Part shown: positions 3,713 to 51,441 of the stretch, piece by piece | How the letters are laid out: the number at the start of each line of letters is the position of its first letter | Position numbering within the stretch: the first letter of the stretch is position 1 | DNA from: Stegostoma tigrinum | Taxonomy: Eukaryota | Direction of reading: 5' to 3' | DNA: 64,000 bases | Assembly (NCBI RefSeq): GCF_030684315.1 | Contig: NC_081368.1 | Span: 33,289,899-33,353,898, forward strand | Notes under the pieces: generated by a model | Told to the model about the DNA's origin: nothing | Database searches by the model: none | The model's input: the letters and a program-made list of their open reading frames with translations, nothing else | Position numbers and translations under genes: made by a program

Positions 3713-3832
3713 ATGAAGACGGGTCCCGAACCGAAACATCAACTTTACTGCTCCTCTAGCACTGCCTGGCTTGCTGTGTTCCTCCAGCTCCAAACTGTGT
3801 TATCTCTGACTCCAGCATCAACAGTTCTTACT
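3713..3832 (+). mobile_element. Short Penelope-derived interspersed repeat with a degenerate hammerhead core
   Basis: atgaagacgggtcccgaaccgaaacatc followed by the family body ctgcctggcttgctgtgttcctccagctc...tccagcatc, also seen at 28.4, 38.3 and 51.3 kb. Confidence 0.7.
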
Positions 3833-4329
3833 TTCCCTTAACGTAAAAACACCTAGCTGTGACTGAAAGGTAACCTCAATGACCTTGGACGAGTTTAGGA
3901 ACAGACCGCTGTGCAAAGACACAGAGACACGTGGACCTGTTTTTGCACCTAGGAATGCTTAGGAAAAATACTCAGATGGCATTTAATGTCAGATTCAGGA
4001 CAGTATTAATACTGGGGACATTGTCCAACTTGAAGGTGGGAGGTTCACAATGCTGGGGCCCAGGGACCTTTCCCAATCAGACTGGATTTCACAAGAACAG
4101 AGCCATGGACTTTCACCATTGGAATGGGTTATGCAAGGCTTGTGTCAAGCAACAGGGAGAGAAATCCAAGTGCCAACTGTCACACAGGAGTCCCCAACAG
4201 GCAGGAGGCTCAGTTGATGATGTCTTAAGTAGTTTAAGCTAACATATGCCATCTAATGAGTGAATCTATCGAAATTACATCAAAATGCACATCTTCTGGA
4301 ATTCATTTCGATCAAACCTTAAAAGAATC

Positions 4330-7442: not shown

Positions 7443-7952
7443 ACAAATAGTAAATGAGAACGATACAGCATAGAATCACACCATTAGACTTAGTGTGCCT
7501 CTATCAGTTCTCTGAAATCAGTGTCTAATTATTTACAATCTTCTTGTTTGCTATAGTCCTGCAAGTACAGAAATTTTTAGTGCATCATAATACTTGACTA
7601 TATAACCCAAGATAGTTGACAGAGTATAAGTTGCAGATTCATATATCAAAAGAGATGTGTAGGGGTGGACCAGGAGGGGGAAGAATAATAAGAAAAAGCA
7701 AGTTCGTACACAGTTTACAGATAAATCAATCTAGAGAACTACAGACTTCAATTGGTTTACCTGTATAAGACATTTTTGTCTATCTTGGGTTATATAGTCA
7801 AGTATTATGATGCACTAAAAATTTCTGTACTTGCAGGACTATAGCAAACAAGAAGATTGTAAATAATTAGACACTGATTTCAGAGAACTGATAGAGGCAC
7901 ACTAAGTCTAATGGTGTGATTCTATGCTGTATCGTTCTCATTTACTATTTGT
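7443..7952. repeat. Perfect 173-bp inverted repeat (arms 7443-7615 and 7780-7952, 164-bp spacer)
   Basis: Arm 2 reverse-complemented matches arm 1 base for base when read through manually (acaaatagtaaatgagaacg...tataacccaagatag). Confidence 0.95.
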
Positions 7953-13100: not shown

Positions 13101-13811
13101 ATGCATGCCCCTTTTAAATTCAGCACACACACCTTCCCCTCCTGCTGTCATTTGTTCCATATGTGCAAAATCAGCAGCAGCACAGTTGTTGTCCAATGGA
13201 TTTCCTTTAGCAGGATCAACAGCTTTGTTCTTTTTGTGACGCCTGATACTGCTAAACAGACCCCTTAGTCCCTTCTTTGACCTTCGCACACTCGAGAGCT
13301 TGTCTGCACTTTGTTTCTGAGCAAAACATTCAGAGTTCTCTGATTGTAGTGATTCATCTTTACAGAGAGTAGAGTTAACATTGTTATCAAGTGCCGAGTG
13401 CTCACTTTTAGAGCCACATAATGTTCTTGCTGCAGAGTTAGAACTAGGTGAATCAGTATATCCACTCCATCCAGTATCAGAGCTTTCTTTCTGGCTGATA
13501 TCCAACACTACTTCACTAATGCCACTGTGAGTTTTGCTTTTGCCGATTCCCTTTTTGGACAGTCCTTTTACTTGCCCTTTGTTCTTTATTGTGAAAAAGC
13601 TAGGTAGTGTGCAAATGTTCTTCCTTCCTCCGAACAGTTTCAATGCCGTTTTCTTAAGCTTCCCAGAAGACTGTTCAGCATCAGTGGTATTAGTACACTC
13701 TGATGATGGATGCACAGCTGCTCCCTGGATCTGTTTCCCTCTGGCAAGTTCCCCATGGCCTGGAGACAAAGGCTTTGTTCCAGCTGTCTCTTCATTGCTG
13801 TCAACTTCCAT
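10185..13811 (-). CDS. AMER1: APC membrane recruitment protein 1 (WTX/FAM123B), single coding exon, 1208 aa
   Basis: Uninterrupted ORF with strong Kozak (gccATGG) and AMER-family blocks: LKKTALKLFGGRKNICTLPSFF, KKGLRGLFSSIRRHKK, FGDVTSLKSFDSLTGCGDI, KRSSCLVTYQGGGEEMA, SAPNSDEGYYDSTTPG, LPRDSYSGDALYE, NRRSKSLDT. Next to ASB12 and MTMR8, which supports AMER1 over AMER2/3. Confidence 0.96.
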   Translation of the reverse strand: MEVDSNEETAGTKPLSPGHGELARGKQIQGAAVHPSSECTNTTDAEQSSGKLKKTALKLFGGRKNICTLPSFFTIKNKGQVKGLSKKGIGKSKTHSGISEVVLDISQKESSDTGWSGYTDSPSSNSAARTLCGSKSEHSALDNNVNSTLCKDESLQSENSECFAQKQSADKLSSVRRSKKGLRGLFSSIRRHKKNKAVDPAKGNPLDNNCAAADFAHMEQMTAGGEGVCAEFKRGMHELNLKSACKMNHLVIGDSIDKTLTANSTNSLSESRAIKIENSLKNKACDFETSCAEVRKASPPEIKTLNGKAGGVILNMDASFGSMPDIVKPKCLDHDPPSVHSFDHINLIFGDVTSLKSFDSLTGCGDITADHDDDSIAESTVSGERGRTAGKRSSCLVTYQGGGEEMATPDEVDDEYLKALWMKATGATVIYDSNQSIAEDGGECPRSPSDVDHSALRISVTDPCALRATADSAINSSELVTPQSDHQESAPNSDEGYYDSTTPGHDEEEGDSISQSKNERLPRDSYSGDALYELFVEQNDSLMNSPPSDEKFLEIKSPSLGISLTGILNFPVPGDVNVSHIPNKHNILLPSGQDKLDFIQEDGIRLAHLQQLTCWEPCGMTALEKGLAFQGRDMFFRDVRNTELNNIAAKADSIIVKSQQDAVSTEPLVSCCLSRSGKVKDDYLTNIADVQNWTDLQGSSCLKEANNKYVVSSQNVCGSYSITKLQHKMSGENYIEGYKSKNCDEWERQMKEVEKGGMKNVTSDRTCVKGVADHSCGNASSCNVVEKTEEQCEQAINYSQALVEFTANRKLYPILSDSLGNSDSSSHFAQDIRALPAMVTFDVVDVENEGECDQQSEMVTDEEISASYETFDNSYMEKEPYHHCDDGMFHICAQNSFLGNCWGAASLPRHSLRKLSSSLPTPLTLNRRSKSLDTDSLESGLIDLYLSKVTAASKSTPQSPDVPKYKQNSKKGPSHWFGKISGQTVSSETGEITYISNCLEQQPLQYREEPLTSDKRNTDSKSFCPFDTDLGAQHIGLGEDLSLYYKSNSVKLPVQNLSTSKQHLEPINNNKKPHSPRKLVRPTHLPLQNDSCKLQSGTVSFNSSRENTNGRQAYSSPSLNEGQKDDISKTVSSVHYSGTDSELDAKGCRDIGLPLALSSFCSNKTESLKHSMNFTGLYTTTNNSMFQGRSDLEVKLPVGWNKNTTMDM

Positions 13812-13910
13812 GGCAACCGTTATCTATACACAGGTGTAATCAGCTGTAAATTGGGTTAGATAGACAAACACCCAAATTGCTGCCACAAAGTCTGCTCAAC
13901 CATCATTGTC

Positions 13911-14885: not shown

Positions 14886-16407
14886 CACCAATTGCTGAAA
14901 ACTGTAATTGTAAAGACGACAATGGCACCATTTGCCTTTGGGACTATACGAATCTTATGTTCAACGATATAACCTTTAATTAATGTAACTAAACAATTGT
15001 AAAGGAAAAAAGTGAACGACAGAAGGTAGTAGAGTAAACTGAAGTCAAATAGGTGAAAGAGACTGGGCTAAAAAAGAACAAAAAAGGGATATTATTTTTA
15101 GGAAAAAAAGAATACCTCTAGGAACAATTTATTACCTACTGAGTTGAATTCCAGTTTCATTGTTCTTTTTTGGGGTTCAATAGTCAGGCCAATAAAACAG
15201 ATCATTACCAGAGACTTTACAATATGAATTACAACATTAATTGGATACAGTAAAAGCAGTTCATTCACAATGCAGATCCAACAAATTTATTACATCCAAA
15301 TGAACTTGAAATTGGAGGTTAGTGGCAAGAGGGTAGTTTGTTTGGTTTCAGTCTGTGGCACTTTTCTAATGAAGCTCAAGGAAAGCTTGAGGAACAGCAT
15401 GGTATACTTTAATCAGTTTACACCTTCCAAACTCAAAGTCAAGTTCAACAATTTCTGATCAGAACCATTGTTGCCATTTTTTGCAGACACCAGCAATAGA
15501 TAATGCTTATTTTGTGCCTATTACCCATATCTGAACCCTTCTCTAGTTTTATTTAGTTATCCTAGTAGTATCTCCTCTTGACTTACACGATCAACCCTTC
15601 TGTCATTTAATAACTACTGCACTCCACCTGATCAAACTCATTTGTTTCTTTTCCCCCTTCTCTTTGCCCTTGAACTTGCTCAAAATGTGTTATATCTGTT
15701 TCCCAATTCTAATGCATGCGCTAGAACCCGAAAGGAAAACTGTCTCTCCCTTCTCCACAGGTGCTGCCTGGTCCAAAGATTTTCAGCATTTTCTGCTTTT
15801 ATTTCAACATCCGCTTTTGTGTCAGTGATAATTAGTAATTACTAATTACACTGACTGGAGAGTGTAATTACAAATTTATGAGAACAGTTTCTATTTTAAC
15901 TATGGGCACAGAATCAACAATGGAAACAAAAATATCAGTAACTATGACCTTAATCTAAGCTTGAAATTACAGCAGCGTTCCCTGGCCTAATTAATGCATT
16001 CTGTCAGCATGCTTCACCTAAAACTTATACCTCCCAGGAGTAACACCACAGGAAATAAAAATCAAACAAGGAATATTCAAATTGGATTTCTTTCCCCTTG
16101 GAAGAGATCAGACACTCAATTTATATGAAACTTCATAACAAACACATGACAATGTTTTAACACATTATATGTACTAAGTAATCCAAAATTATCAAATATG
16201 CCAAAATTTGCACAGTACCAGTCTGCAAAATAATCCACTCATCTTGTAGAAAGAGAGGGAAATTCCACATTCCCATCATATACTTCAATACAATCCTGAA
16301 GTAAATTTGACAATCCTTTAATATTTTTGCAACATGACTTGTTCCATTCTTTTAAAATCCTTTTAAAAACCTAACTTGCTTCCAAACTCGATGTTCCGGG
16401 CAAAGCA

Positions 16408-17149: not shown

Positions 17150-17243
17150 AACACACAGAATGCTGGAGAAACTCAGCAAATCTGGCAACTGAGGAGAGAG
17201 AAACAGAAAATGTTTCAAGTCTGGTATGTCTCTTCTTCAGAAA
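17150..17243 (-). mobile_element. Short Penelope-derived repeat with a degenerate hammerhead core
   Basis: Minus strand ctgaagaagagacataccagacttgaaacatt followed by the family body (tctctctcctcagttgccagatttgctgagtttctccagcatt). Confidence 0.6.
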
Positions 17244-20200
17244 GTGCTTTTTTGAAGTATTGTTGCTGTTGCAATGAAGGTACATTCAGTAAGTTTTCAT
17301 AACTATTATATGTACTAAATAATCCAAATTTGCACAGCACCAGTCTGCAAAATAATCCACTCATCTTGTACAAATAGAGGGAAATTCCACATTCCCATCA
17401 TATACTTTACTACAATCCTGAAGTAAATTCGACAATCCTTTAATATTTTTTGCAACATGACTTTGTTTCATTCTTTTAAAATCCTTTTAAAAACCTAATT
17501 TCTTTCTGAACCCTTGATGCTCTGTGCAAAACTGTGGCAATACCACATAATCTATTTTATTGAGGCTGATGGATGAAAAATCTATTTGGCTTTTTCATTC
17601 CTGAGATTGTGTAGAATTATCAATTGCTGTAGGTGGTGGTGAGCTGCTGTCTTAAATTTTTTGAGTGATCTGACATACTTGAGTAACTTGCTAGTCCTGT
17701 GCCAGTTCATTTCAGAGGGCACTTAAGAGTTAACCACTTTGCTACGGTTTGGAATGATCACACTGGCTAAGGACAGCAGATTTCCTTCCCTGTAAGATAT
17801 TGGTTAACCTTTTAAAATAATCAAGTGGTTTCATAGCCATCATTACTGGGACCTATCTCATCATTACAAATTTATTCATTAATTGAATTTAAGATTTAAG
17901 ATCACCAATCAAGGTGACATTTTAACACAGAAATGCATTAATTTAATTCCATTGTCCATTACGCAACCATCACCATTTGTCAGAACACCAAAATAAGTAC
18001 CTGCCCTAAATAGTGATTTTGGACCTTTCATATCCAAAGCACCTCAGTTCAACACTTTTTTTCTGAAAGACAGAACCTCAGGCATGCAATGTTCCCTCAA
18101 TATGTTATAAATGATTTTAAAAGTTTTACACTGGTTGGATAAAGCTACAATACAGCTAAAAAGGAATGGCAATGGCAATGGCAATGATTTGCTTTTGAAA
18201 TGAATGTGCAGTAAAGATTGAGATGGTTAGAAAATAACCCCAAGGTTGGGGCAGACATTATGGCTGACTGCCTCTGACAGTGGAAAGAATGGAGCTGTGA
18301 AGAGTAGTAAGGTTTGTAGATTACAGATCAGTTCTACAGTTGAAAAGAATCACTTCAAATGAGATCAGGCAAATACAGAATGACATGGGCCAGGTCCTCA
18401 TGGCTGAGGTAGAATGAATGCAGAGCACAGATTAGTTCCAACCCCAGTGGTGTTATGTCAATTAGAGAATTCATGTTTTGTAAATTTATACTTTTTAAAA
18501 ATATATATTTAAATGTCCACAACGCACAAAAAGACGCCCATTTCGCTGGAGTAATGAGGTAAAACTATTCAATGCAGTCAAAAATATGAATAATTTGTAA
18601 TAACACCCGATGTTTCAAGATGCTCCGAAGCCACTGAATTGCTTCAAACCATTACTGAATTACATAAATCAGTCACACGTTGATTAATGACACTGTCAAA
18701 ACTCATTTCAGAGTGACAACCAGGGGGTTAACCATAGATAAACACAAGCAATAGACTAGCATAAAACATACTTTGTTCAATGCATCGGACAAAAAATTTA
18801 TTTAATAAAAAAATCACACACACATTACCAAACAAGTTTGGGCTGGTGGAGGAATTGGGGTGGTGGCAATTAACAGGAAAATTGTATTACAACTCAGGAT
18901 CTGTGATTCCAAAATGTAAAGGTTTAAAGGCAAATAACCAGCAGGGATAACTGCGTACGTTTTTTGCCCAGAGATAAATTAAAAGGATTTACTGTGGCAG
19001 GGCAGCATAAGACTCAATTTTTTCTTTAAATATTCACACCTTACTAAAAGCAGCTCAAAACAGAGGCGCAATTATTGTTTAGTATAATTTCTTGGATTTG
19101 AGCATTTTTTTCCCCCCAAATAAAAGTGGCCCAATAAAAAGCAGCCAAAAATATGTAGAACTGCAAAATAATCAACGGTTTAACAACTGAAAATAAAAGA
19201 CATAATTCCACAGGCAGATGACAGTCCCTCCAATTTAAAGCTCCCAATTTTATTACAGTGGCTTTCACATGACAGTTCCATCTGTGGCACACACATCCTC
19301 CTCCTAAGCACTCAGCCAGCATACAGATGGTACCAATACATCAGTTGCTTAATTCAGCCCTACAGCATCCAAGACCTGCTAACAGACTCAGTGCAAGATA
19401 CAAGTGCCCTTGCCACCGCCAAAGAGATCAATAATTGCAAACCTATTAATCAGGAAAAGTTATATTATCACAATGTTAGCCCTTCCACCTGACTAAGTGA
19501 TCCTTGAACCAAATCTGCAGAACAGCTGTGACGATGCCAGAAATCGTTACAAATTTTTCCAGTTTTTGTTACACTGAACTTTGTCACCTTGTCATGTTTC
19601 TTCCCAATTACCCATAGGCTCTGTTCCAGCATCTGGTCAAAAGAAGTTTACTCACTCAGGATAGGAAAATGGAAGTTTAATGGGCAAATTGGTATCTGGT
19701 GGATCTGCAATATCAGATAAGGTTCAAAGTGTTCCAGGTCAATATTTTGTTCTAAATTCGATAACATTAGATGAAAGAAATCCCCAAGGTTAACGTTCTA
19801 GAACTTTGGTTAATTGAATTGGGTCGTTTTCATGTTTAAAATATTATAAATTTGACTTTAGTTTGTCATTTATAATAAAAAATTTCCCCAATTTTGTCCA
19901 TATCTCATTGTTACCTATTTGAGCACTACAAAAATAAACTGCTGACCCCAAACTCCTGCATAATATCAATGCAAAATACTAGCATTATTTTAATTTCCAC
20001 ACCAGGACTCTACAATCCATCATAAGAATCAGGGCCTGCCAATGATGTATGACAGTAGTCATGTTAATTCCATAATCCCACATAGCAAATGTGAATCTCA
20101 ACTAATCAGAACAAATCCTGTAAAAAGGGCCACAGATGTATGAAATTGAAATAGTAGCTTTGCCAAACAAAGAAATATGCTAAGCCACTGCAGATTTGCT

Positions 20201-22759: not shown

Positions 22760-24245
22760 TACTGTTTAAGGTGGAATGATTCCTATTAGAGCCAAAGGTG
22801 GTGATATATACAAAGTGATCGCAGGATAAGATTAAAACACTTAAGGAGAATTTCACATCAGTGTTAATGAAAAACAGGGATCTTAAAAAATGCTGGTAAA
22901 AACAGATATAGTAGAAGAAACGGATAAGGTGAATGTTGACAGGGACAAAGCACTGGAAAGGCTGGCTATGCTTAGAGTGGATAAGTCACCTGGCCTGTAT
23001 TGGGTGCACCCCAAGTTGCTGAAACAAGTGGGTTTCAAACTGTCAAACAGGCTTGCCCATTGTAATATCCTGGAATGATTGGAAGACAGAGATACAGAAG
23101 GATAAAACTGTGGCAAATATGATAACATTACTCAGGAAAAAAATGCAAGGTTAGCACAAGCAACTACATCCAACTAGTTTTAACATTAGTAGTCTTAGAA
23201 ACAATAATCAGGGAGCAAGATATTAAACCAAGGCACTTGGACAACCTTGAATTAACTAAGTGCAGTCAACACAGATTTATAAAAAGTAAATCTTGTATTT
23301 GACTAAATTTTTTTTCCATGAAATAACACAGAAGGTTCATGAAGGGAATGCAGGGATATTGTATTTTTAGATTTCAAGAAAATATTTGACAAAGTAACAC
23401 ATACAAGGCGAGAAAACGAGAAATATTAGTGACAGGTTTGATAAAACTTAAATATAAGGAAAGGAAAACAGCAAGTCACGGTTAATGAGATAACATGGTG
23501 TGAAGTTGGATGAACACAGCTGGCCAAGCAGCTTCAGAGGAGCAGGAAAGCTAATAGGAAAGCATCAGCAGTTCCTACAATCTCCGTACCAAGTCATGGT
23601 TAATTATTTATCAGAATGGAAGGTGGTGGGCAGTGGTTTTCCCTAAAGATCAATGCCAGGACAGGTGTTTTTCTTGCTACATAATTTACTATGTATTCTG
23701 AGATGCAAGTCATTGAAGAAAATTTGCCAATAATACCAAACTTTGAGGACTTGCAAAGTGGAGATAACATGAATCACCTGCAATGACACAGATAAGCTAG
23801 AGGAATAGCCAGGCAAGTGACAGATGGTATTCAGCATAGAAAAGTGAGGTGATGATGTGTTTGCCAGGCAGGAGAGGCAAGTAGAAACTCTCTGGCCAGT
23901 CATAAAGCATATGCAAGAAGAGAGGAACTTGTTGGCACAGGTACATTGATCTTTGAAGGTGGCAGGGCATATCGAGACAGTGGTTAGCAAAGCACACGGG
24001 ATTGTTTTAGACTTACTAAACATAGGTATTGAGTATAAAAACAGAGAAGTCAAAGTCTGGTTTGGCCCAAATTGCGTACTGCATCTAAATCTGGTCACCA
24101 CATTTTCAGAAGGATGTGAACAATCTTGACAGTGTAAAGGAGATTTAACAAAATAGTGCAAAGGATGGGGGTTTTACATACAATGTTACATTTGAAAGTC
24201 GAAGTTGTTCTCTTAAAGTAAAGGAGATTGAGTGAAGAATTAGGT
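22760..24245 (+). mobile_element. Old CR1 ORF2 (RT) fragment, with a short PLE-derived insert near 23490-23590
   Basis: LRVDKSPGLYWVHPKLLK; degenerate SQHRF/KSC, LDFKKIFDKV and RT C-terminal sequence. Confidence 0.75.
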
Positions 24246-28223: not shown

Positions 28224-28522
28224 CACACACTTGCTTCAGAGATAGTAGGAACTGCCAACTCTGGACAATCTGAGATAACAAGGTGTAGAGCTGGATGAAT
28301 ACAGCAGGCCAAGCAGTGTCAGAGGAACAGGAAAGCTGACATTTCGGGTCTGGACCCTTCTTTGGAAACTTCTTCAGAAACGTCTTCGAGAAGAGTCCGA
28401 AGACCCCTCACTTTTCTGAAGAAGGGTCCAGACCCGAAACGTCAGCCTCCCTGTTCCTCTGATGCTGCCTGGCCTGCTGTGTTCATCCAGCTTTACACCT
28501 TGTTATCACACACTTGCTTCAG
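28224..28522. mobile_element. Palindromic non-autonomous PLE-derived element with two outward-facing hammerhead-like arms and a 16-bp TSD
   Basis: TSD cacacacttgcttcag at 28224-28239 and 28507-28522. Inverted arms about 28274-28362 and 28419-28507. Intact core on + at 28416-28443. Confidence 0.85.
28416..28443 (+). ncRNA. Minimal hammerhead ribozyme motif
   Basis: CTGAAGA-a-gggt-ccag-accc-GAAAC-GTC: conserved core, stem II and a loop-less self-complementary stem III. Stem I pairing is weak. Confidence 0.6.
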
Positions 28523-30679
28523 CTGCTTCATGATTAAATTATAAAGGAGCTTGGTTAGATCATACCTGGAGTATTATGTCCATTCTCATCTCCTTAACTC
28601 AGGAATGATACTGTTGCACAGAGCAAGTGCAACAAAGGTTGGCTGGACTTGTTCCTGAAATGGCAGAACTGTACTATAGACTGGGCAACTGGGCCGGTAT
28701 TCTCGAGAGTTTTGATAAATGAGAGACGATCTCATTGAAACTTACAATATTCTTAAGATAGATGGTGAGCCTAGAACCATGGGGCACATTTAAAAGAAGA
28801 GAATGTCATGGGAATTTTAGAGGGCAAGGGAGATTGGAGACCACCAGAGTCACAGAACTAAAGGCAAAGGGAGTGTAAATGGCTGAGAAAGGATGTTGTA
28901 TCCAGCATTGGGGGGGGAAGGGAAATAAATTTATACTTTATTGGAATAATTGCAGGTGCCATATCTCCAGTTCTTTACTTACATAAGCATGCCTACTGTT
29001 TATGATCATGCATTTCGAATTGTTAAACCCTGAAGTCAGCATGACATCAACCTTTGAAGTATAAAAAAATTTTTGATGTGCTTGAATTACATTCTCCCCA
29101 AGGTTGGTCATCAGCTTCCCAACCAGGTGCCCCCATTCCCCGTGTCAGAAGTGTAATTCCCAAAACTAAATGTAATATCCAAAGTATATGAACGATCAAC
29201 TATAGATTTGTAACAGTATTTTCGTAGGTGTGGTGTATCAGCAGCAGCTGATAGGTAGCATATGTATGTTGGATTGCAATTGAAGGAAGGGCACTGATGA
29301 ATCTTCCACCAACTGCTCTCATGTGAGTTAGAGAGAAATTGCTTGGATAGATTTAGCTGGAATGAATATATGTTTATGTTTCCCTGTGTGTTTTAACCAC
29401 AAGTGTTCCTGATGTGACATGCACCAACTCACATTCCTTCCAGTTTAGTAATCACGTACTGTCAGTAAGCTGAAGGGATTCACTTTGAAAGTGCTTTTCG
29501 TGTAAAGATAAAACTAGATTTTTAAAACTTGGTGCCAGGGCTTAAATATCAAAGTCCTCTTACTAGTAAAAAGAAGTTGTTTGAGATATTATTTCCTTTC
29601 CAAGAAGGACAGCTGACACCAAAACGTAGGACTCGTTTAATAAAAATCTAGATGCTGAGGGGAAAATTTGACTTGACATTTTGGAAGGACAAGGTTAGAA
29701 GGATCAAGCAATCTTTTTCACCTGATTATATTCATATAATTCAATTTCTTCACATCTTTCCTTTTGTATTAACTTAAGAAATTGGAGCAGGAATGAGCCA
29801 TTTATCCCTTCAAACCTGCTCCACCATTCAATAATATTGTGACTTATCTTATGCCTCAGCTCTACCTTGCCACACATTTCCTTAATTTCCTTGAAAGCCC
29901 AGTGTCTTACATTATGTACAGCTGCTGGACAGCAGACATCCCTTTATTACCATGACTAAGTGTTCCTTCTTCATGTGTGAGCTACAGTGTATTCAGAATT
30001 TTGTTATCCTGCTCTAATCAATGTTTTTATTTCAATTATTTGAGAGTACATAAAATGTAGCCATTCATTTAAAATTAGATTCCTCCAGAAAAATATTTGC
30101 TATAGTATATCTTGCTGTCAGTCGCCTCAAAGCTAACCACACTGATGGGCTAATGTTAGTAATCCAGCTGATTGATTATTTGGTGGAAGTTTAATATATC
30201 TGTATTCCATTCACTGTGTATATTAAACCACAGTTCAAACTTTTATGGTTTAGATTTACAGTTATGAAATGAGACTCAACAATTTAACATACCTGACTTG
30301 CATAATCTCATTGAAACCAAGTATTTTCATTGAAATTATCTTTTTAATGAAATGATAAATGCTACCACAGTGGCAATGTCAAAGGACTCTTAGTGGTATT
30401 GTAACCTCTGAAGAAAATAACAGCTTTGAAAACTTTGATTTTGTCATCATCTTCTAAAGTGATGATTCTGTTGCATTGCTCTACAGAGGAAAGCAGTGTT
30501 CAGCCCAAGTGTCTGTTCCTCATGAATAAACATAGACAGTAAGTGCAAACAGTAAATTTTTAATTCACTTGTGAAATTGTAGGCATTACTGGCTGGCCAG
30601 CATGTATTGCCCATCCCTAGCTGCCCTTAAGAAAGAGGTAGTGAGCTGCGTTCTTGAACTTTACAGATGGAGAGTGTAA

Positions 30680-31853
30680 AAATAAAATCCAGTACCAGGT
30701 CCAATGCTTAAACAAGGGGGACTACAATAGAATGAGGGAGGACTTGGCTAAAGTAGATTGGATACAAAGGCTTTGTGGGACAGTTGACAAGCAGTGGAGG
30801 ACTTTCAAAGCAATTTTTCAAAGTGCTCAGCAAAAGTATATTCCAGTGAAAAGGAAGGACTGTAAGAAAAAGGGTAATTTGTCATGGGTGTCTAAGGAAA
30901 TAGGGGACACTATCAAATTGAAAGGGAAGGCTTCCAAAGTGTCCAAAAACAGCATGAAACTAGAAGATTGGGAAAACTTTAAAGGTCAACAGAAAGCCAC
31001 AAAAAGAGCTATAAAAAAAATAGAAAATGAGAAAAAACTAGCACAGAATATAAAGACAGATAGCAAAAGTTTCTATAAATATATAAAACGGAAAAAAAAT
31101 GGCTAAAGTAAACATTGGCCCTTCAGAGGATGAGAAGGGGAATTTAGTTATGGGATATGATGAAATGGCCGAGGCATTGAACAGGTATTTTGTTATCGGT
31201 CTTCACAGTGGAGGACACTAATAACATGCCAGTAATTGACAAAGAGACGAAGATAGATGAGGACCTGGAAACAATAATTATTACGGAAGAGGTAGTGTTG
31301 GGCAAGCTAATGGAGCTAAGGATTGATAAGTCTCCTGGCCTTGATGGAATGCATCCCAGGAGACTAAAAGAGATGGCGGGAGGAATAGCAGATGCACTGG
31401 TGATAATTTTCCAAAATTTGCGTGTCTCTGGGGCAGTCCCAGCAGATTGGAAAACAGCAAATGTGATGCCACTGTTTAAAAAGGGAGGTAGACAAAAGAT
31501 GGAGAATTATAGACCGGTTAGCCTAACCAATGTAGTGGGGAAGATGCTGAGTCTGTTATCAAGGAAGAAATAGCAAGGCATCTCGATAGAAATTGTCCCG
31601 TTGGGCAGACACAGCAGGGGTACATGAAGCGCAGGTCATGCTTGACAAATCTTTTGGAATTCTATGAAGACATTACGAGCCCAGTGGACAATGGGGTCCC
31701 AGTGGATGTGGTGTACCTAGATTTCCAAAAGGCCTGCGACAAGGTGCCGCACAAGAGGCTGCTGCATAAGGTAAGGATGCATGGCGTTAGGGGTAATGTA
31801 TTAGCATGGATAGAGAATTGGTTGACTAACAGGACGTGAAGAGTGGGGATAAC
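30680..31853 (+). mobile_element. CR1 ORF2 internal fragment
   Basis: ORFs 30654-31106, 31190-31573 (KSPGLDGMHP, DWKTANVMPLFKKG, NYRPVSLT) and 31624-31839 (RSCLTNLLEF, DVVYLDFQKA). Confidence 0.92.
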
Positions 31854-31872
31854 TAAGTGATCACACAAACAA

Positions 31873-32015
31873 TTGATCAGTTCTCAGGAAGGGTCACCGG
31901 ATCCGAAACGTTAACTCTGTTCCTTCATAGATGCTGCCAGACCTGATGAGCTTTTCCAGCAACATTCTTTTTGTTCTTGATTTACAGCATCCGCAGTTCT
32001 TTCAGTTTTGATCAG
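31873..32015 (+). mobile_element. Short PLE-derived element with an 8-bp TSD and a variant hammerhead core
   Basis: TSD ttgatcag (31873-31880 and 32008-32015); core ctcaggaagggtcaccggatccgaaacgtt. Confidence 0.7.
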
Positions 32016-32084
32016 ATCTAATCTCTGCAGTCCTGCCACATTCAGTTGTGAATAGTAATTAGTCATTTCAGCTTCAAAACACCT

Positions 32085-33510
32085 TTGCAGAACATCCTCA
32101 AGGTAGTGTCCCAGGCCCGAACATGGTCAGCTGCTTATCAATAATATTCCCTCCATAATGAGGGAAAAAGTAAAGAATGTTCTCTGATGATTATGTGATG
32201 TCCAAATGGTTCCGACATTGTGAAGATATCATAGAACATAGAACAATACAGCACAGAACAGGCCCTTCAGCCATTGATATTGTGCCAACCTGTGAACTAA
32301 TCTAAGCCCATCCTCCTACACTATCCCATCGTCATCCTCATGCTTAGCCAAGAACTGTTTAAATGCCCCTAATGTGGCTGAATTAACTACATTGGCAGGC
32401 AGGGCATTCCATGCCCTTACCACTCTCTCAGTAAAGAACCTGCCTCTGACATCTGTCTTAAATCTATCGCCCCTCAATTTGCAGCCATGTCCCCTCATAC
32501 AAGCCGACATCATCATCCTAGGAAATAGACTCTCACTGTCCACCCTACCTAATCCTCTGATTGTCGTGTATGTCTCTATTAAATCCCCTCTTAGCCTTCT
32601 TCTCTCCAATGAGAACAGACCCAAGACCCTCAGCCTTTCTTCATAAGACCTTCACTCCAGACCAGTCAACATCCTGGTAAATCTCCTCTGCACCTTTTCC
32701 AATGCTTCCACATCCTTCCTGTAATGTGGCAACCAGAACAGTATGCAATATCCATGTTCAAGTGCAGCGAGGAGGACAATATTTAAGTTTGGGCTGAAAA
32801 GGGGAAAGCAACATTCACGCCACACAAATGTCAAGCAATGACCGTCTCCATCAAAAGACAATCTATCATCCCTTTTATGTTCAATAGTATTATGATCAAT
32901 GTACTCCCACAAAGAAAATCCTGAGGGTTACCCTTTACCAGAAATAGCCGTAATAAATATTGTGGCTGCAAGAGAGATCATGCACTTACTTCCTGACTCC
33001 CAAAGCCTGTCCACCAGGAGCAAGACACAAGTCAAGAGTGTGATGGAATACTCTCTACTTGCCCAGATGGATGTATCTCCAACAACATTAAAAAAACTTG
33101 ATACCATGCAGGTCAAAACAGACCCCTTGTTTGGCACCATATCCACAAATATTCACTTCCCTTCCCACCTTGGTTTCATATGTCAAAGATGCATTGGCAA
33201 AAATTCGCCTAGGGTCCTTATCAGCTTCTTCTATGCCCATGACCACCACTGTCTAGAAGGAGAAGGGAAGCAGTTACATGGGAGCACCGCCACCTCCAAG
33301 TTCTCTCACTCACCATTCTGACTTGGAAATATATCACCAACCCTTCAGTGTCAGTGTGGCAAAATTATGAAACTCCCTCTCTAACATCTTTATGGGTATA
33401 CCAAATGAACTGCAGCATTCAAGATAGCAATTCATGACAATCCACTCAAGAGCATCTAGGGATGGGTAATGAATGCTGGTCTAACCTGTGACACCCATGA
33501 ATGAATAAAA
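32085..33510 (+). mobile_element. Old L2/CR1-group LINE 3' half, interrupted by a younger CR1
   Basis: Remnants of QGSVLGP...FINDLP...MFADD at 32100-32190; ORF 32899-33321 has KTQVKSVMEYS; 3' end ggatgggtaatgaatgctgg...atgaatgaataaaaa. Confidence 0.65.
32230..32735 (-). mobile_element. Young CR1 3' end nested in the older LINE
   Basis: ORF 32316-32624 GLFSLERRRLRGDLIETY...RGRFFTERVVRAWNALP; reversed (catagaa)n tail at 32230. Confidence 0.92.
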
Positions 33511-33909
33511 ACTCCAAAGTGAACATGGGAAAATGGTGCAAAACCATGTATAATCGATGCTTCAGCCACTTCATAACAATGGCATATGACGGTGTCTTCA
33601 GGACTTGCCATATTTTTAAGAAGAGGAACCAAACAGAAACAATATTTCCCAAAAGAACTGAGGCAAAATCAAGGATGATGGCCATGGCCACTCTTACAAA
33701 TTTATAATGTGTTCAGTGGCCTTGTGGCAGTTTGCATGGCTGCTCTCTATACCCAGAAATGGCAATCTTTGACAAACATCTTCAACATACTAAGCATACC
33801 TGATCACTTTGCAGAGGTGGAATGCACCAATAAACATTATTAAGAGTATTAGAGAAAGAGTGATCAGAAACACATCCAAAAGGCAGGTTTTGAAAATCTT
33901 TTAGAGTAA

Positions 33910-34201
33910 CAAGTGAGTTCAAAGTGAGAGGAGGAAAGTTTAAGGGAGATATGCATGGAAAGTTCTTTACACCGAGGGTGGTGGGTGCCTGGAACGTGTT
34001 GCCAACGGAGGTGGTAGACGCAGACACGTTGCATCTTTTAAGATATATTTGGACAGGTACATGGATGGGCAGGGAGCAAATGGACACAGACCCTTAGAAA
34101 ATAGATGACAGGTTAGACAGAGGATCTCGATTGGCGCAGGCTTGGAGGGCCGAAGGGCCTGTTCCTGTGCTGTAATTTTCTTTGCTCTTTGTTCTTTGTT
34201 C
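33910..34201 (+). mobile_element. CR1 3' end
   Basis: gagggtggtgggtgcctggaacgtgttgcc (RVVGAWNVLP), gggccgaagggcctgttcctgtgctgta, (tctttgt)n tail. Confidence 0.85.
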
Positions 34202-35370
34202 TAACCGAAAAATTAATGCAGTTAGATTTATTAAGGGAGTTTTCACTATAGTTGAGACGATTGGAAGCCATGTCACTGAGTGACAGTGATCATGAATGGG
34301 TAGGTTGGAGGCTGAAGCTCCTTAGCATTTGAAGGTTATTAGTTCAGATTAGGATGTGAATTTTGAGTCAAATTCTAGAAGGAAAGAAGCAAATAAGAAT
34401 TGATAATATGGGGTTGATACAATATGGTTTTGAGAACAGAATATAATGCACCAAAGAATGTGGGTTTCAGAGATTTCCACGTTAGATTTTGGTGCAGTAA
34501 CTAATTAGAATGCATTACAAAATGTAATGATTCCGTTCTCTATGTGCCTGTTCCTGTTCCTCCCCCGCCTCACTCTGACTATCCATATTTAAGTCTGTTT
34601 AGGCATCGCCTTTACCCAATGGTCCTAGTGCAACTTTGACACTCTCCCTCTCCATGTCAACTTAAATTCATTCCTATTTCTCAGCCAATCTCTCTCCCAC
34701 TCAGTGTCAGATCTCTTTCCTCTCTCGAGCAAGCTATTACCTTGTCAGTTAATATTGTTCTGAGGCACTCTCAAATAAAAACGACACTTGAAAATAATTT
34801 TCTTGTCAAAACATGCCTTGGGAAAACGCTTTAATCTTTATGTCTTAGCTTGCTTAGAAATTATTTGGTAAAACAATCTCAACAAAATGTCCTACTTCCT
34901 ACAGACAAAGGAGGTGATTAAGCTATATGCCTGGGGCTTGACGAGTAAAGCGTGGGGATGAGCAATTAATCAAATGGGTTAGGTGGGAACGTGAAGAAGG
35001 CCAAAGCATGTAGGGTTGATTGGGAGGACAAGCAGAAATAAACATTAGTTTTTGGGGTTAGGACTGAAAGGCTGAGTCTGTGACTCATTCTGTGAAGTGA
35101 TACCTGTGCTGCATTCTACCTGCACCCAAATTGTAAATGTGCAACCAAAATAGGAAATGGCTGTCACCACACCCAGGGGATGGAGTGTTTTTCTCCTTTA
35201 AGGAAGGAGCCTCCACTTTTTGTCCAATGTGTGACTCTTTAAAGGGTACTAGCTTAAAACAGTCATCCACACATTATTGATGATAGATATCTGTTAATCT
35301 GTTATCAAGTCATTTGTATATGGATTTCATGCATTGATGTACTGTCTCAACTAAAAATCCTGGCCACAAT

Positions 35371-35534
35371 CAATCTTAACCAACAAAAAGCAAAATATTG
35401 TGAATGCTGGATATCTGAAATAACCCAAACTGCTGGAGAAATACAACACGTCTGGCAGCATCTGTGGAGAGAGAAACAGAGTTATGTTTTGAGTCCATGA
35501 CTCTTCTTCAGAAATGATCTAGCAATCTTAACCA
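35371..35534 (-). mobile_element. Short PLE-derived element with a 12-bp TSD and a mutated hammerhead core
   Basis: TSD caatcttaacca (35371-35382 and 35523-35534); minus strand ctgaagaagagtcatggactcaaaacat (GAAA changed to AAAA). Confidence 0.7.
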
Positions 35535-35845
35535 CATCATTAACAGTGTGGTTTGACATTTTGGAATGGCTCCACTCTGTAACAAAACATTGGACATAAC
35601 CTTTTGAAAAGGTGGCCACAGAAATAAATTGAGAAGACATCAGCTGAAAGATGTAAGTATCTATCTGTTTCCATTCTTTTTCATCTAGGTAAACCTGGTT
35701 TAAGACAGTTCTTTACATAAATTGCTTACTTGCTCTGACATATCCCTCAAATGTTGATAGTTGTGAGGAAGATTCACTTGCCGTTTGGTAGGTTGTTGTA
35801 ATAAATCCTGAAAATGTGTTTTGTTGAATGATTATCTGGCTGAAG

Positions 35846-36070
35846 TGGAGTCAGTTAACTCCATTGGTTGGATGGTTAGTTTGCAATGCATAAAAACAGT
35901 CTGGGTTCATTTCCCACACAGGTGCATGTTAACATTGGAGGACTTTCTCTTCCAACCTCTCTACTTGCTGAAGTCACGATAACCGTTAGGTTAAACCACC
36001 ACTAGTTATCTCTGTCCCTGTTGAGACTTAAACCCTCTGGTCCAGTAGGACTATGGCAACTTTACATTTA
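35846..36070 (+). mobile_element. Probable tRNA-derived SINE
   Basis: A-box-like tcagttaactccattggttgga, B-box-like gggttcatttccc, tail ggactatggcaactttacattt. Confidence 0.5.
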
Positions 36071-36168
36071 TTATCAAGCTAAAATATTAACCTTATTTAC
36101 CATTCACTGACACTGCCAGACCTGCTGATTATTTCTATATTTTGTTTAAATTTCAGATTTCTTGCATC

Positions 36169-36475
36169 AGTAGTACTGGGTGTGAGTTTGCTCGCTGAGC
36201 TGAAAGGTTAGTTTTCAGACGTTTCGTCACCATTCTAGGTAACATCATCAGTGAGCCTCCGACGAAGCACTGGTGTTATGTCCCGCTTTCTATTTATCTG
36301 GTTAGGTTTCCTTGGGTTGGTGATGTCATTCCCTGTTCTTTTTCTCAGGGGATGGTAGATTGGCGCTAATTCAATGTGTTTGTTGATGGAGTTCCAGTTG
36401 GAATGACATGCTTCTAGGAATTCTTGTGCATGTCTCTGTTTGGCTTGTCCTAGGATGGATGTGTTAGTAGTACTG
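36169..36475 (-). mobile_element. Penelope-like element 3' end (GIY-YIG C-terminus + pLTR), 10-bp TSD
   Basis: Minus strand encodes ILGQAKQRHAQEFLEA...INKHIEL, matching the copy at 47.6-47.9 kb. TSD agtagtactg at 36169-36178 and 36466-36475. Confidence 0.85.
36218..36251 (-). ncRNA. Minimal hammerhead ribozyme motif in a PLE pLTR
   Basis: CTGATGA-t-gttacc-tagaat-ggtgac-GAAAC-GTC, with a 6-bp stem II and 3 bp of stem I (tca/tga). Confidence 0.75.
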
Positions 36476-37545
36476 TAGTCCTAGTAGTACTGTATTTCAC
36501 TTTTGTATTAATGTTTATACTTTTTCCTTAGTTCAGTACTGATATCCCTCTTTTTAAAAATTCTAAATGCAGTAAGAATGCTGTTTTGTTAGTAGGTGTG
36601 AATGATAATAAATCATCTACAGAAGGAGCAATTGTAATAATTAAGTCCGTTTATTTGCATAAGATACAGTCATTCAATATCTGAAGTGGATCCTGTATTT
36701 TGTGGAATACTTAGGAACAACATACCATTTCTTGCTAGCAATTGAAAAAAGGTGAAAACATAAATTTCATAACAATTTGTGGGTGTTATACTTTCTATTT
36801 TACCTACTGCACAAACTGTAAATATATTAAGGGAGGAGAAGTACTCCATTTTTTTCAGTGGAAGTCTCTTTATTCTCTTACCGTTCTCAGCCCTTTTATT
36901 TTCTTCCCACCTCATTCACCAACTACTGAATGGCATTGAGGTATCTAAAATAAATCTGAATTTTTCATGTGTAAACCTAAACAAAAAGGGCCCATTCATT
37001 AAATAGTTAAGCTAGGGCCCATAAAAATGTCATCAGGTACCTCAACTGTGGTAGGCATCACAATTCGGCCCTTTTTAGGTACCCACACATCGGCACTATG
37101 TATTAAATAAACAGACAATTACTTTACATCACATATCCTTTCTGATCTATAACTGCCTGAATATCTTAGAATTTACTCTGTTGTAAAATGTGTCATGTCT
37201 ATCAAAATTTTCCTTTAAATTATTCATGGAAGTATTTGTATAGTGTTGTGTACTATCTTCGAGTTAAATTAAGAAATTCTGCCAGCCAGAATACACCTAA
37301 ATTTCCCTTTTCCATACCACACAGCTGAAGCTTGTGAATTCCCTATGACTTAATAGATTGGACAATTCCAATCTGTAATAATAGTTAGTTTCATGACCAT
37401 TGAAGTAAAATGCCCCACCTCAGTCGATATTTGTTGCAGATGAAAATCACAATTTTAAAATTACACATTGTAAAGAAAGGTTTTTGGCTAAATTGATCTG
37501 AACTCTACTGAACGCAAACCATATATGTATGTAAAGACTCAACAG

Positions 37546-37682
37546 TCAACTCAGATGGTGCTTCACATAGTTTTTTAGAATTGGTGGTATGTCTAGCTGG
37601 TCAATGGAATGCAGTCCACTTGCTTCTTTGAGGTATTTGCGGATGGTTATCCTGGACAGTGACTTCAAGCACCTCGGCTGAG
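37546..37682 (-). CDS. ASB12: ASB12 terminal coding exon (SOCS box), not in the ORF track
   Basis: Acceptor tctttgattccag|ct. Phase-1 join gives (A)QPRCLKSLSRITIRKYLKEASGLHSIDQLDIPPILKNYVKHHLS*, a BC-box plus cullin-box pattern. 137 nt, frame-compatible with the upstream donor. Confidence 0.93.
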
Positions 37683-38108
37683 CTGGAATCAAAGATATGT
37701 TAGGTCAAATTTTTAGAGCAAAAGTATCAATAGCAATTGTGACAACTTTTTCTCAGTATTCAAACCCAGTTGTTGAATGTGAAGGTTTGATGGTATTTTA
37801 GTCTCCTGCACCAAGGTTAGGATCTGACATGATCTGAACTCGCTATTTCCAGGTTCTGTCCATGAGCACTGACTGTTACTCTAACCTCAGGGTGGGTATC
37901 AAGAGAGGAGTGTCTCATAGCGTGGTGTCCAGTATTTAAGTTTCAGTGTAATTACAGCTTTACGTGACTAAAGAATAACTAAGAGCATTGAATTGCCCCA
38001 TTTCCACCAACCTCTGAAGCAGACAGTTCCAGCATCATGCAATCTATGAAAAGAAAATAATTCTGTTATAGTGGTCTTTAAAGGGTGATCTCTAATTTTA
38101 AACCAGCA

Positions 38109-38385
38109 TCCCTAGTTCTAAGAGAAAAAGGTGTAGAGCTGGATGAACACAGCAGCCAGGTAGCATCAGAGGAGCGGGAAAGCTGACGTTTCGCGTCTGC
38201 ACCCTTCTTTGGAAAATTCTTCGAAAAGGGTCTTCGGACCCTTCATTTTTCTGAAGAAGGGTCCAGACCTGAAACGTCAGCTTTCCCGCTCTCTGATGCT
38301 GCCTGACCTGCTGTGTTCATCCAGCTATACACCTTGTTATCTCAGACTCTAGCATCGGCAGCTCCGGCTGTCTCCCTAGTTCTAA
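38109..38385. mobile_element. Second copy of the palindromic double-hammerhead element, 13-bp TSD
   Basis: TSD tccctagttctaa at 38109-38121 and 38373-38385. Inverted arms about 38128-38209 and 38254-38335. Core ctgaagaagggtccagacctgaaacgtc at 38251-38278 (+). Spacer resembles that of the 28.3-kb copy. Confidence 0.85.
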
Positions 38386-42640: not shown

Positions 42641-43348
42641 ATCCACAACTTTAATTATCAGGCTTTCATACCCTTTGTCTAAGTCATTGATATAAAATTT
42701 AAAATATTAAGGCCCCATCGCATATACCTGTGGACCTCCATTTGTCAAATGCTGCCAATCAGATAAGGATTCATTTATGCTTATTTTCTGTTTTCCCTCA
42801 GACAGCCAATCTTCTACCTTCCATCTTCAGTTCAGAAGAATAATATTGGACTCAAAATGCTAACTCTGTTTCTCCCTCCACAGATGCTGCCAGACATATT
42901 AAGCTCCTTCAGCATTTTCTCTTTTAATTTCAGCTATCCAGCAGTACTCTGCTTTTATTCAATGTTGAATCCATGCTAATATATTACCATGCACCATGGG
43001 GAAATCTTATAGGAATTCTTAATCCTTAATACATACAGAGCTACTCTGCAGATATGCAATAATGTGCAAAATTTCAATTATAATTTTGGTTTTAATTAAT
43101 TACCACCGTCATCTCTACAATAGTTAAATTCCTGTTAGCAACAAATGAGAGTGATTCTTCCTGTTGTTTTTGTTGAAATAGTTTTTTGTTTGAAAGTGAG
43201 AAGATGGATTTTTCACTTTTATACTAGCTTGCCATTTTATAAAAAAAAACATAAATATTTGTTAGTTACTGTTCAATGAATGCACCAGATCTGCTACTTA
43301 ACTGTATGACTTTTTAATATAAAAAGGACAATTAAATTGTATGCTTAC

Positions 43349-44165
43349 CTCTGGCTCTATCCACAAGTTTAAGCACTTCACTTTGCTTTATACTTTTATT
43401 TGCAGACAGATCCGGCAAATAAGGGTTTGCTCCAAAGTCTATGAGCAGCTGAACGTACTCAGTTCCACAGCCATATTTAAAACACATCTCCAGAGCTGTC
43501 TTTGGTGATTTAATTCTAGACAGTAGTTTTTCCTCAGTGCAGTTAAAATCTGGATTGGCTCCATAGAGAAGAAGAAGACGAAAGCAGTCAAAGTGTCCAT
43601 AAACCAAAGAAAGGTAGAGAGGACCACTGGTAGCACAGGGATTGTAGGCCCAATTCGGCATCTTGGAGCGAACATTGACTTCTGCTCCATGATCCAACAG
43701 TTCCTTTAAAATCTCCACATCCCCTTCTCTGGCAGCAATCAAAAGAGGTGAGCTGTTGTTATACATACTACCATTAGGATTAGCTCCAGCCCTTAGCAAG
43801 GCTTGGACACAATCTAAATGCTTACCACTGACAGCGGTGAATAAAGGTGTTTGAGCTTTCACATCTAAACCATCCACCTCAGCACCATGGGCTAGGAGGA
43901 CCTCCAGGCATTTCAGGTGACCCCGGGTAGCTGCTAGACGTAGAGGGGTTACTGGAACACCCCACCCACTTCGGCTATTGATAAATCTCCTGTACTTTTC
44001 CTGGGATAAAAGTTCAGCTAGTAGTTTGTCATCATTGTTGGAAATTGCTTGGTTTAACTGACTTCTTTCTCCATTATCATCTTCATCCGTTGGCTGGAAC
44101 ATGGAAAATATCTTCGTAATATCCACAAGGCTCATTTTGGCAGGCCACATAATATCCAGTTCCAT
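43349..44165 (-). CDS. ASB12: Ankyrin repeat and SOCS box protein 12, main coding exon
   Basis: AKMSLVDITKIFS, FINSRSGWGVPVTPLRLAA, DVKAQTPLFTAVS and GPLYLSLVYGHFDCFRLLL are recognisable ASB12 sequence. The track ORF starts at a TTG; likely ATGs are 44165 or 44135. Donor AGAG|gtaagc at 43348; the track's GKHTI tail is intron read-through. Spliced product about 317 aa. Confidence 0.96.
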
Positions 44166-44455
44166 GTTAATGAAAGATGACCCTCTCAATTGCAGTCACA
44201 ACCCGACATAATTCACTCCAGTCACTCGTTAAAGTTTGCTGATTTTTAGTATAGTTAATAATGCAAAAAAGCAGGAATGAAGTTAGGCAACAGAATATTC
44301 TACTGCCTCTCCACTGATTTAGTCACGTGTAGGATTCTCAGATCTACTTTAGTAACCAAATAATCAAAGCCTTAAGTTGATCCAAACAACTTCTTCCGTC
44401 TAGTCATCTATCCAAATATCACAGCAAGTGTGTCTGTGCAGAGAAACCGAGGATA

Positions 44456-47454: not shown

Positions 47455-48060
47455 GCCTAAGGAACGCTTCAACATCAAGTTACCTTACATCAGGAACACA
47501 TCTGAACTGACCACAAGACTCCGACGACCACTGGGCATCAGAGTAACACACAAACCCACATCAACCCTACAACAATGTTCACTCAAACCAAAAGACCCAC
47601 GACGAACAGGACCAATGTCATATACAAGATTCTCTGCAGAGACTGTGACAAACATTACACTGGACAAACAAGAAGGAAATTAACAAGGGTACACGAACAT
47701 CAATTAGCTGCAAAAAGACATGACCAATGCTCACTCATCTCTATCCACATGGATAAGGAGAACCACCCATTTGACTGGGACAACACCAAGATCCTGGGAC
47801 ATGCAAAGCAGAGACAAGCACAGGAATTCTTAGAAGCCTGGTACTCCACAAAGGAAACCATCAACAAACACATAGAGCTCGACACCCATATACACTCCAT
47901 TGTGAAGGGAAACCGGAAGTGAAGTAATCCAGCTCAACGGACTCCAGAGTTCAAATAACAGGCGCTTCATCGGAGGCTGCACTGATGATGTTACCCAGTA
48001 GGGTAATGAAACGTCTGTGGAGAAACAACAAACCAGCCTAGCGAGCCAACCAACCACAAA
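47455..48060 (+). mobile_element. Penelope-like element 3' part: GIY-YIG endonuclease remnant + pLTR
   Basis: ORF 47575-47922 NVIYKILCRDCDKHYTGQTRRKLTRVHEH...EFLEAWYS...INKH is a PLE-type GIY-YIG with CxxC. Confidence 0.9.
47977..48020 (+). ncRNA. Minimal type I hammerhead ribozyme motif (best-formed in the window)
   Basis: ctgca-CTGATGA-t-gttaccc-agta-gggtaat-GAAAC-GTC-tgtgg: 7-bp stem II, 5-bp stem I with G-U pairs, GUC cleavage triplet ending at 48015. Confidence 0.8.
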
Positions 48061-51189: not shown

Positions 51190-51441
51190 TTCTGAAGAAG
51201 GGTGCCAAAACATTGAGATAATGGGAACTGCAGGTGCTGGAGAATCTGAGATAACAAAGTGTGGAGCTGGATGAACACAGCAGGCCAAGCAGCATCTGAG
51301 GAGCACAAAAGCTGACGTTTCGGGCCTAGACCCTTCATCAGAAATCTGCTTCCTCTTCACAGATACTGTCAGACCCATGGACATTTTCTAGCAATTTCTG
51401 TTTTTGTTTGATTTCCAGCATCTGAAGTTCTTTGTTTTTTT
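51190..51441. mobile_element. Nested pair of PLE-derived short elements: inner (-) 51215-51344 inside outer (+), within a CR1 3' end (about 50960-51590)
   Basis: Outer ctgaagaagggtgccaaaacatt|...|tctgcttcctcttcacagatactgtcagacc. Inner minus-strand core ctgatgaagggtctaggcccgaaacgtc at 51341-51314. Confidence 0.75.

Follow-up and report, generated by a model that had tools for sequence, protein, structure and literature searches.

Two palindromic inserts lie about 10 kb apart in the window, i.e. the whole stretch of 64,000 nucleotides that was analysed, from Stegostoma tigrinum (contig NC_081368.1, positions 33,289,899 to 33,353,898, forward strand). They are referred to here as E1 (within 28224-28522) and E2 (within 38109-38385), in window positions. 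Both are probably separate insertions of stubs from the pseudo-long terminal repeat (pLTR) of a Penelope-like element (PLE), each likely consisting of two head-to-head cDNAs built on site, with a centre that was likely copied locally between the two neighbours. As such, they are a known kind of PLE insertion with an architecture already in print, and the view that they represent a new mobile ribozyme family does not hold. What is worthwhile in them is the neighbour-copied junction.

Structure of the two inserts

Both palindromes were recovered at the coordinates given by an initial annotation of the sequence, with sizes of 267 bp (E1) and 251 bp (E2), and the target site duplications (TSDs) around them are exact:

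28224..28239: E1 left TSD, 16 bp
28240..28368, minus strand: E1 long arm, pLTR end positions 1-129, tail of ~31 nt at 28240-28270; hammerhead start CCAAAGA, GAAAT replacing GAAAC
28369..28412: E1 junction filler, 44 nt, a patchwork of arm-start pieces with an inner hairpin at 28390-28408
28413..28506, plus strand: E1 short arm, pLTR end positions 1-94, tailless; intact minimal hammerhead motif at 28416-28443, predicted cut after 28443
28507..28522: E1 right TSD
38109..38121: E2 left TSD, 13 bp
38122..38215, minus strand: E2 short arm, 94 nt, tailless; start damaged (CCAAAGA), stem II altered
38216..38247: E2 junction filler, 32 nt, inner hairpin at 38226-38244
38248..38372, plus strand: E2 long arm, 125 nt; tail at ~38345-38372 (2-nt-deletion tail subtype), minimal hammerhead motif at 38251-38278
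38373..38385: E2 right TSD

The inverted arms that had been described are present, but they pair over ~94-98 nt (89% complementary in E1) rather than 80-90, and the fillers measured above replace a claimed spacer of 55 bp. The core is indeed intact on both plus arms (starting at 28416 and 38251), both minus arms share the damaged start TTTCCAAAGA (CCAAAGA), and the tail of ~30 nt belongs to the left arm of E1 and the right arm of E2. What had been missed is that the arm with the damaged start is the long (tailed) one in E1 but the short one in E2. The label 'double hammerhead' is misleading, since the two cores are on opposite strands. Except for a 13-nt indel, the E2 filler is collinear with that of E1 on the plus strand.

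A 100-nt contig of one public run, which is possibly the source sample, spans the centre of E1 (28339-28438) with 1 difference at a depth of 11.2, compared to 10.8-11.4 for the flanks and 10^5-10^6 for the arm bins in the same run. Because contig depth equals flank depth, E1 is no assembly artefact, and its centre is real and looks single-copy; this read check covers E1.

The parent element and its stubs

Every arm corresponds to the final ~97 or ~130 nt, at the 3' end, of a pLTR from an abundant PLE encoding reverse transcriptase (RT) and GIY-YIG endonuclease. Thirteen of 30 sampled arms extend upstream into common sequence, over lengths from 118 to 1,499 nt or more, the longer extensions encoding RT (YIDD) and GIY-YIG motifs, which bears out the PLE origin proposed for the arms; the proposed reliance on PLE RT/GIY-YIG proteins is supported as well. 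A protein search of the genome returned 269,843 first-look candidates, 150 of which were scored. At 12 loci, picked for their long frames, open frames of 617-844 aa end in an E1/E2-type pLTR, and the motifs DKG, YIDD and YIGET are visible in the long frames. These copies belong to a younger subtype, 78-84% identical to the E1/E2 arms. One locus (L122) is arranged as in textbooks, with an inverted arm, then 5' pLTR, coding region and 3' pLTR, and a partial tandem of pLTRs with an inverted 5'-truncated copy was found both there and in L127. The features of endonuclease-positive (EN+) PLEs are thus in place: a single open reading frame with a PLE-type RT plus a GIY-YIG domain at its C terminus, and a tail of 30-40 bp on one end only, both E1 and E2 combining a long with a short arm. 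In the case of the 777-aa frame of L121, the matches to RVT_1 (E 3e-5) and GIY-YIG (E 0.002) are both below the Pfam curated cut-offs, which weighs against this assignment, and the second protein tested, that of L119, gave no Pfam match. A Cx4CxxC motif stands ahead of GIY-YIG in 12 of 12 long frames. Because it lies between RT and endonuclease, the parent PLE likely belongs to the Neptune clade, judging from the translated frames. In the available text of PMC8557442, a zinc-finger-like Cys motif within the stretch linking RT to endonuclease is the criterion for Neptune, common to Nematis. No description of this shark PLE palindrome family was found in the literature, coverage of which was incomplete, and unread supplements may list shark families.

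Head-to-head stubs of this kind are very numerous. An exact junction pattern has 3,687 matches in the genome, a lower bound on head-to-head junctions, versus 5 for its control, and a 34-nt arm pattern has 58,227 exact matches. Among the first 50 junction matches, 41 resolve to two E1/E2-family arms (the other 9 were dropped), with the long arm ending at 125-132 in 37 of them and, in 33, the short arm ending at 92-104. Within 684 kb surrounding the window, a census gave 147 arms (78 with short and 69 with long ends) and, after removal of one false pair from 36, 35 palindromes. Palindromes nearly always join an arm of ~97 nt to one of ~130 nt within one TSD: long and short arms are paired in 33 of the 35 (binomial p 3.7e-8 against 0.5), and a TSD of at least 8 bp is present in 29. 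The fillers of E1 and E2 are the two longest among the 29 with both arms short. The density of stubs is ~51 per Mb in the surveyed region, which, if that region is typical, extrapolates to ~1.6e5 palindromes genome-wide.

Some palindromes depart from the common architecture. Two rare ones (L053 and L173) have a tail on both arms, and in L052 and L077 a ~50-nt unit derived from arm positions ~44-104 is repeated in tandem arrays, with both palindrome arms expanded in this way in L052. The centres of L051, L059 and L064 contain a second, related PLE-like family with head-to-head junctions and the same arm start.

Hammerhead motifs and transcripts

Minimal hammerhead ribozymes (min-HHRs) had been suggested for the arms, and both plus arms do carry the hallmarks, i.e. 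CUGANGA, the extra base, a helix II closed by G10.1-C11.1, GAAA, a palindromic 15.2-16.2 and UH; the two minus arms of E1/E2 lack the full set. An Rfam scan returned no hammerhead among 6 matches at E<=5, as is expected because the minimal motif lacks helix III. A transcript of either strand has a single sense core lying downstream of the antisense copy; the predicted folds (-178.6 and -172.7 kcal/mol, z about -21) pair this core within a stem of ~100 bp. Because the sense core would be locked in the long stem, no self-cleavage is predicted in any read-through transcript of the palindromes. Few 5' ends fall near the cut site in the census (5 of 147 at positions 30-34) or in a partly overlapping sample (4 of 59 at positions 31-32), and no sharp 5'-end peak at position 32 was seen either in the census or, by eye, among 100 of 1,516 rows. 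Contigs of runs guessed to be RNA cover the arms as repeat only. Elsewhere in the window, at 36216-36253 and 47980-48017, another PLE-like family is represented by hammerhead cores of the CTGATGA type, whose stem II is longer.

The shared centre

The two centres are not independent, as had been proposed: E1 and E2 have in common a private filler as well as a rare lesion. The exact pattern of the filler hairpin has 2 matches genome-wide, which are E1 and E2 themselves, while two mismatches give 20 matches versus 55 in a control. Five of the 18 other two-mismatch matches sit at E1/E2-family junctions, all with a TGAA loop, unlike E1 and E2. Among 3 candidates, the best non-self match of the E2 centre is E1 (81% over 62 nt), and the two are mutually best among 91 centres. 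The lesion CCAAAGA occurs in 43 of 10,003 arm starts (0.43%), and in 30 of those 43 arms that were inspected the filler was found in E1 alone. No third copy of the centre was found with exact, one- and two-mismatch patterns or a 68-nt BLAST, although very common words were skipped in the DNA search and absence is unproven. A same-strand alignment of the two centres scores highest (112 versus 80), yet tail polarity is opposite.

The features common to E1 and E2 are limited to approximately arm positions 1-17 and the filler, whereas private features lie further out. T42 is private to both E1 arms and C40 to both E2 arms, and the two tails belong to different subtypes. Since each lacks the other's tail, neither insert is, by its sequence, a whole copy of the other; a segmental duplication from E1 to E2 was rejected, the flanks being unrelated. 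Because the common features are central and the private ones outward, the best explanation of the pattern seems to be that the centre was copied locally, after the donor had already mutated.

Several points weigh against this explanation. Similar hairpin fillers do arise independently (at 5 other loci, of which two are mutual duplicates, with further look-alikes), and against the E2 centre L050 and L033 score 71 and 68, not far from the 76 of E1. The split between a copied centre and copied whole arms rests on few sites (T42, C40 and the tail subtype); C40 is a CpG site and able to decay, and C57 is common to the short arm of E1 and both arms of E2 while absent from the E1 long arm. The centre motif was, moreover, defined once the pair had already been seen, and no other pair with a distinctive filler was found among the 35 census palindromes, most fillers being too short to tell.

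Other junctions shared between neighbours

On contig C1, two palindromes 8.6 kb apart (L225 and L226) have a 34-nt filler in common. The former lies in a compound insert (L225:1372-1942) of short arm, filler, long arm and ~165 bp of the neighbour's flank, followed by a further tailed arm, all enclosed by a 13-bp TSD with one mismatch. It is 93.5% identical over 433 nt to the neighbouring palindrome (L226:12-270) and its flank. Because the CpG decays of the donor are kept in the copy, yet its short arm has bases absent from the donor, the comparison favours a fresh cDNA that would have switched onto the neighbour. In a third case (L227:2148-2352 and 3317-3521), the two members lie 1.3 kb from each other and have their junction in common via a 205-nt, 98% identical inverted copy running from the palindrome centre into the flank, for which no TSD was found.

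Old stub palindromes might be local donors, with new insertions within ~10 kb routinely finishing by copying a neighbour's centre, but this generalisation is tentative and rather doubtful. The template would be the neighbour's DNA or its read-through RNA, sometimes plus host flank. If true, the stubs would drive short local duplications throughout the genome, and would preserve, like fossils, traces of the final PLE insertion step, which has not been seen. No paper on neighbour-copied PLE junctions was found in the literature, again with incomplete coverage.

Two local duplications within the window are recorded here in their own right. A 173-nt inverted repeat (7443-7615 and 7780-7952), with arms 100% complementary and 164 nt apart and no PLE arm seen, looks like a very recent fold-back duplication. 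A direct duplication of 88-95% identity (16204-16387 and 17326-17511; 1.1 kb apart) has a hammerhead-bearing arm of another PLE-like family between its copies, at ~17153-17243.

Proposed mode of insertion

Each cut target end may prime one cDNA, one at each of two RT start sites. This step is modelled on the anole Poseidon protein, for which the available text of PMC11167929 describes cutting and extension of both target strands in vitro and RT starts at two internal sites bounding the tail. One cDNA per target end, each from one start site, would therefore give the rule of one long and one short arm. Both cDNAs would then run off the 5' end of an RNA that starts at an initiator-like motif shortly ahead of the hammerhead core; run-off is suggested by the pile-up of arm 5' ends at position 1, with 42 of the 147 census arms beginning within 3 nt of it. 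The sequence at pLTR position 1 reads like an initiator. The ends would be joined by a short fold-back or templated filler, new at each landing, and the fillers are mostly arm-start pieces, as expected from fold-back and template switching. In either E1 or E2, the homologous centre 10 kb away would have served as repair template for the cDNA ends or for a later hairpin break, which would have brought in the mutated arm start and the filler while the outer arms, tail and TSD stayed its own.

According to the available parts of PMC8557442 and PMC11167929, the inverted ends and one-sided tails of PLEs are still unexplained. Strict long and short pairing, together with the pile-up of 5' ends at one position, amounts to a testable twin-priming model, and a centre copied from a neighbour would mean that homologous DNA or RNA close by can serve as the template when the ends are finally joined.

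Alternative explanations

The initial annotation saw in E1 and E2 a non-autonomous palindromic double-hammerhead RNA spreading as a family of units. The common filler and the common rare lesion on which it relied are real, and both copies have TSDs, but the annotation's own ground for rejection applies, since the fillers of thousands of other palindromes differ (33 distinct strings among the 41 resolved palindromes, with lengths of 0-44 nt in 34 of the 35 in the census), and the centre, instead of recurring as the internal sequence of many dispersed copies in the manner of a MITE or SINE, is found in E1 and E2 only, 10 kb apart. If palindromes moved as units, long arms should look alike across elements, and so should short arms. 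In fact, arms cluster by element and not by side: minor alleles in common number 1.53 within elements versus 0.61 between them (long-long 0.58, short-short 0.63), a within-element value reached by 0 of 10,000 permutations. This test used 36 palindromes, five others being omitted (one tandem array and four short alignments), and retains L180 and L181, which are not independent of each other. Because the arms of one element carry common variants, each palindrome was most likely built in its own insertion event, as far as such alleles can tell. With tails of opposite polarity and different subtype, and one sense core per transcript that is predicted to be sequestered, movement of the palindrome as one family unit was not borne out and is very improbable. 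Pure convergence, in which independent landings would have received similar fold-back fillers and gained CCAAAGA separately, fares little better. Fillers do recur and are made of the same few arm-start words, and CCAAAGA is found on several backgrounds, plausibly through T>C followed by CpG decay, the intermediate CCGAAGA being present in 3 of the first 100 arm-start rows by an eye count. Yet the hairpin filler is found at only 5 other loci, always with the TGAA loop, against the ~1.6e5 extrapolated palindromes, and it would have to coincide with a lesion of such rarity in adjacent elements and on the same side, so that convergence is improbable. A CCGA-bearing source subfamily as the sole cause is a weak candidate, since all 4 of the pattern-set palindromes in which one arm starts with CCG have CTG in the partner arm.

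There are two further alternatives. A read-through transcript of one palindrome could have been reverse-transcribed by the PLE protein and landed nearby, starting in the sense arm and running through the filler into the other arm, with a second cDNA from another RNA completing the insert; in that case part of the hairpin would be mobile as a unit, in cis. Each palindrome strand has at its end a sense arm containing an RT start site, and pLTRs can mobilise intervening DNA in trans (available text of PMC3846280). The order of short arm, filler, long arm and flank in the L225/L226 pair is that expected of such a cDNA, and the layout of E2, with its damaged short arm and foreign tail, agrees with priming on an E1 transcript of the minus strand. 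By this route one whole arm should be copied, yet E2 lacks T42 and E1 lacks C40, the short arm of the L225/L226 copy has C35 and bases 93-98 that the donor lacks, and the RNA would be a hairpin of ~100 bp; local re-mobilisation is unlikely, if less so than convergence. Only slightly better placed, and still unlikely, is a second arm formed by fold-back self-priming of one cDNA, with no second priming event. Self-priming has been proposed for palindromic PLE junctions in the rotifer A. vaga, and Arkhipova et al., in the parts available, favour it at head-to-head junctions, which counts against twin priming. One recurrent junction also reads like a cDNA end folded back on itself, and it would account for arms of one element carrying common alleles. 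It leaves unexplained, though, why the partner arm stops at ~97, an end also used by solo arms, and how local DNA came to lie between the arms in L225. Two on-site cDNAs with a locally copied centre thus remain the preferred account of E1 and E2.

Surroundings of E1 and E2

The window contains three further arms of the E1/E2 family:

51215..51344, minus strand: solo arm, sharing 92% identity with the pLTR of a coding copy that is near full length
3714..3835, plus strand: solo arm, more diverged
23486..23552, minus strand: 5'-truncated arm

E1 and E2 lie between two host coding exons on the minus strand, one of the AMER family (10188-13823, Pfam E 2e-97) and one of an ankyrin-repeat protein (43335-44195), a pairing reminiscent of AMER1 beside ASB12.

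Comparison with known systems

EN+ PLE insertions (PMC3846280, PMC8557442) resemble E1 and E2 in their head-to-head inverted pLTR ends, junction palindromes, one-sided tail of 30-40 bp and TSD around the entire insert, whereas the halves of E1 and E2 are trimmed to ~97 and ~130 nt and contain no coding sequence, such stubs occurring at ~51 per Mb in the surveyed region. The min-HHRs of metazoan PLE pLTRs (PMC4209133) likewise lack helix III and have the extra base between 9 and 10.1, G10.1-C11.1 and a palindromic 15.2-16.2. Dual min-HHRs on opposite strands are described there for Schistosoma, 100-700 bp apart; E1 and E2 differ in having a helix I of ~2 bp, cores less than 60 nt apart and a sense core predicted to pair with the antisense arm. 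Non-LTR retrozymes (bioRxiv 10.64898/2026.07.22.740005) are also non-coding, hammerhead-bearing and pLTR-derived, but they are head-to-tail tandems with two cores on one strand, whereas E1 and E2 are head-to-head with one core per strand, for which reason identity with them was rejected.

As for the mechanism, the Anolis Poseidon protein PAc (PMC11167929) shares with the proposed model its two internal RT start sites bounding the tail and the cutting and extension of both target strands; it is a predicted dimer, and insertion needs no ribozyme cleavage. Clade and host differ, and the available text offers no model of how head-to-head stubs or copied junctions arise. In L1 twin priming (PMC11702581), a second RT reaction on the reciprocal end keeps the TSD, and microhomology end joining and templated pieces are found at insertion sites, as would be the case in E1 and E2. 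The two cDNAs of L1 copy adjacent parts of one RNA, whereas those of E1 and E2 would copy the same 5' segment, and the template of their joint would be the neighbouring copy of the element.

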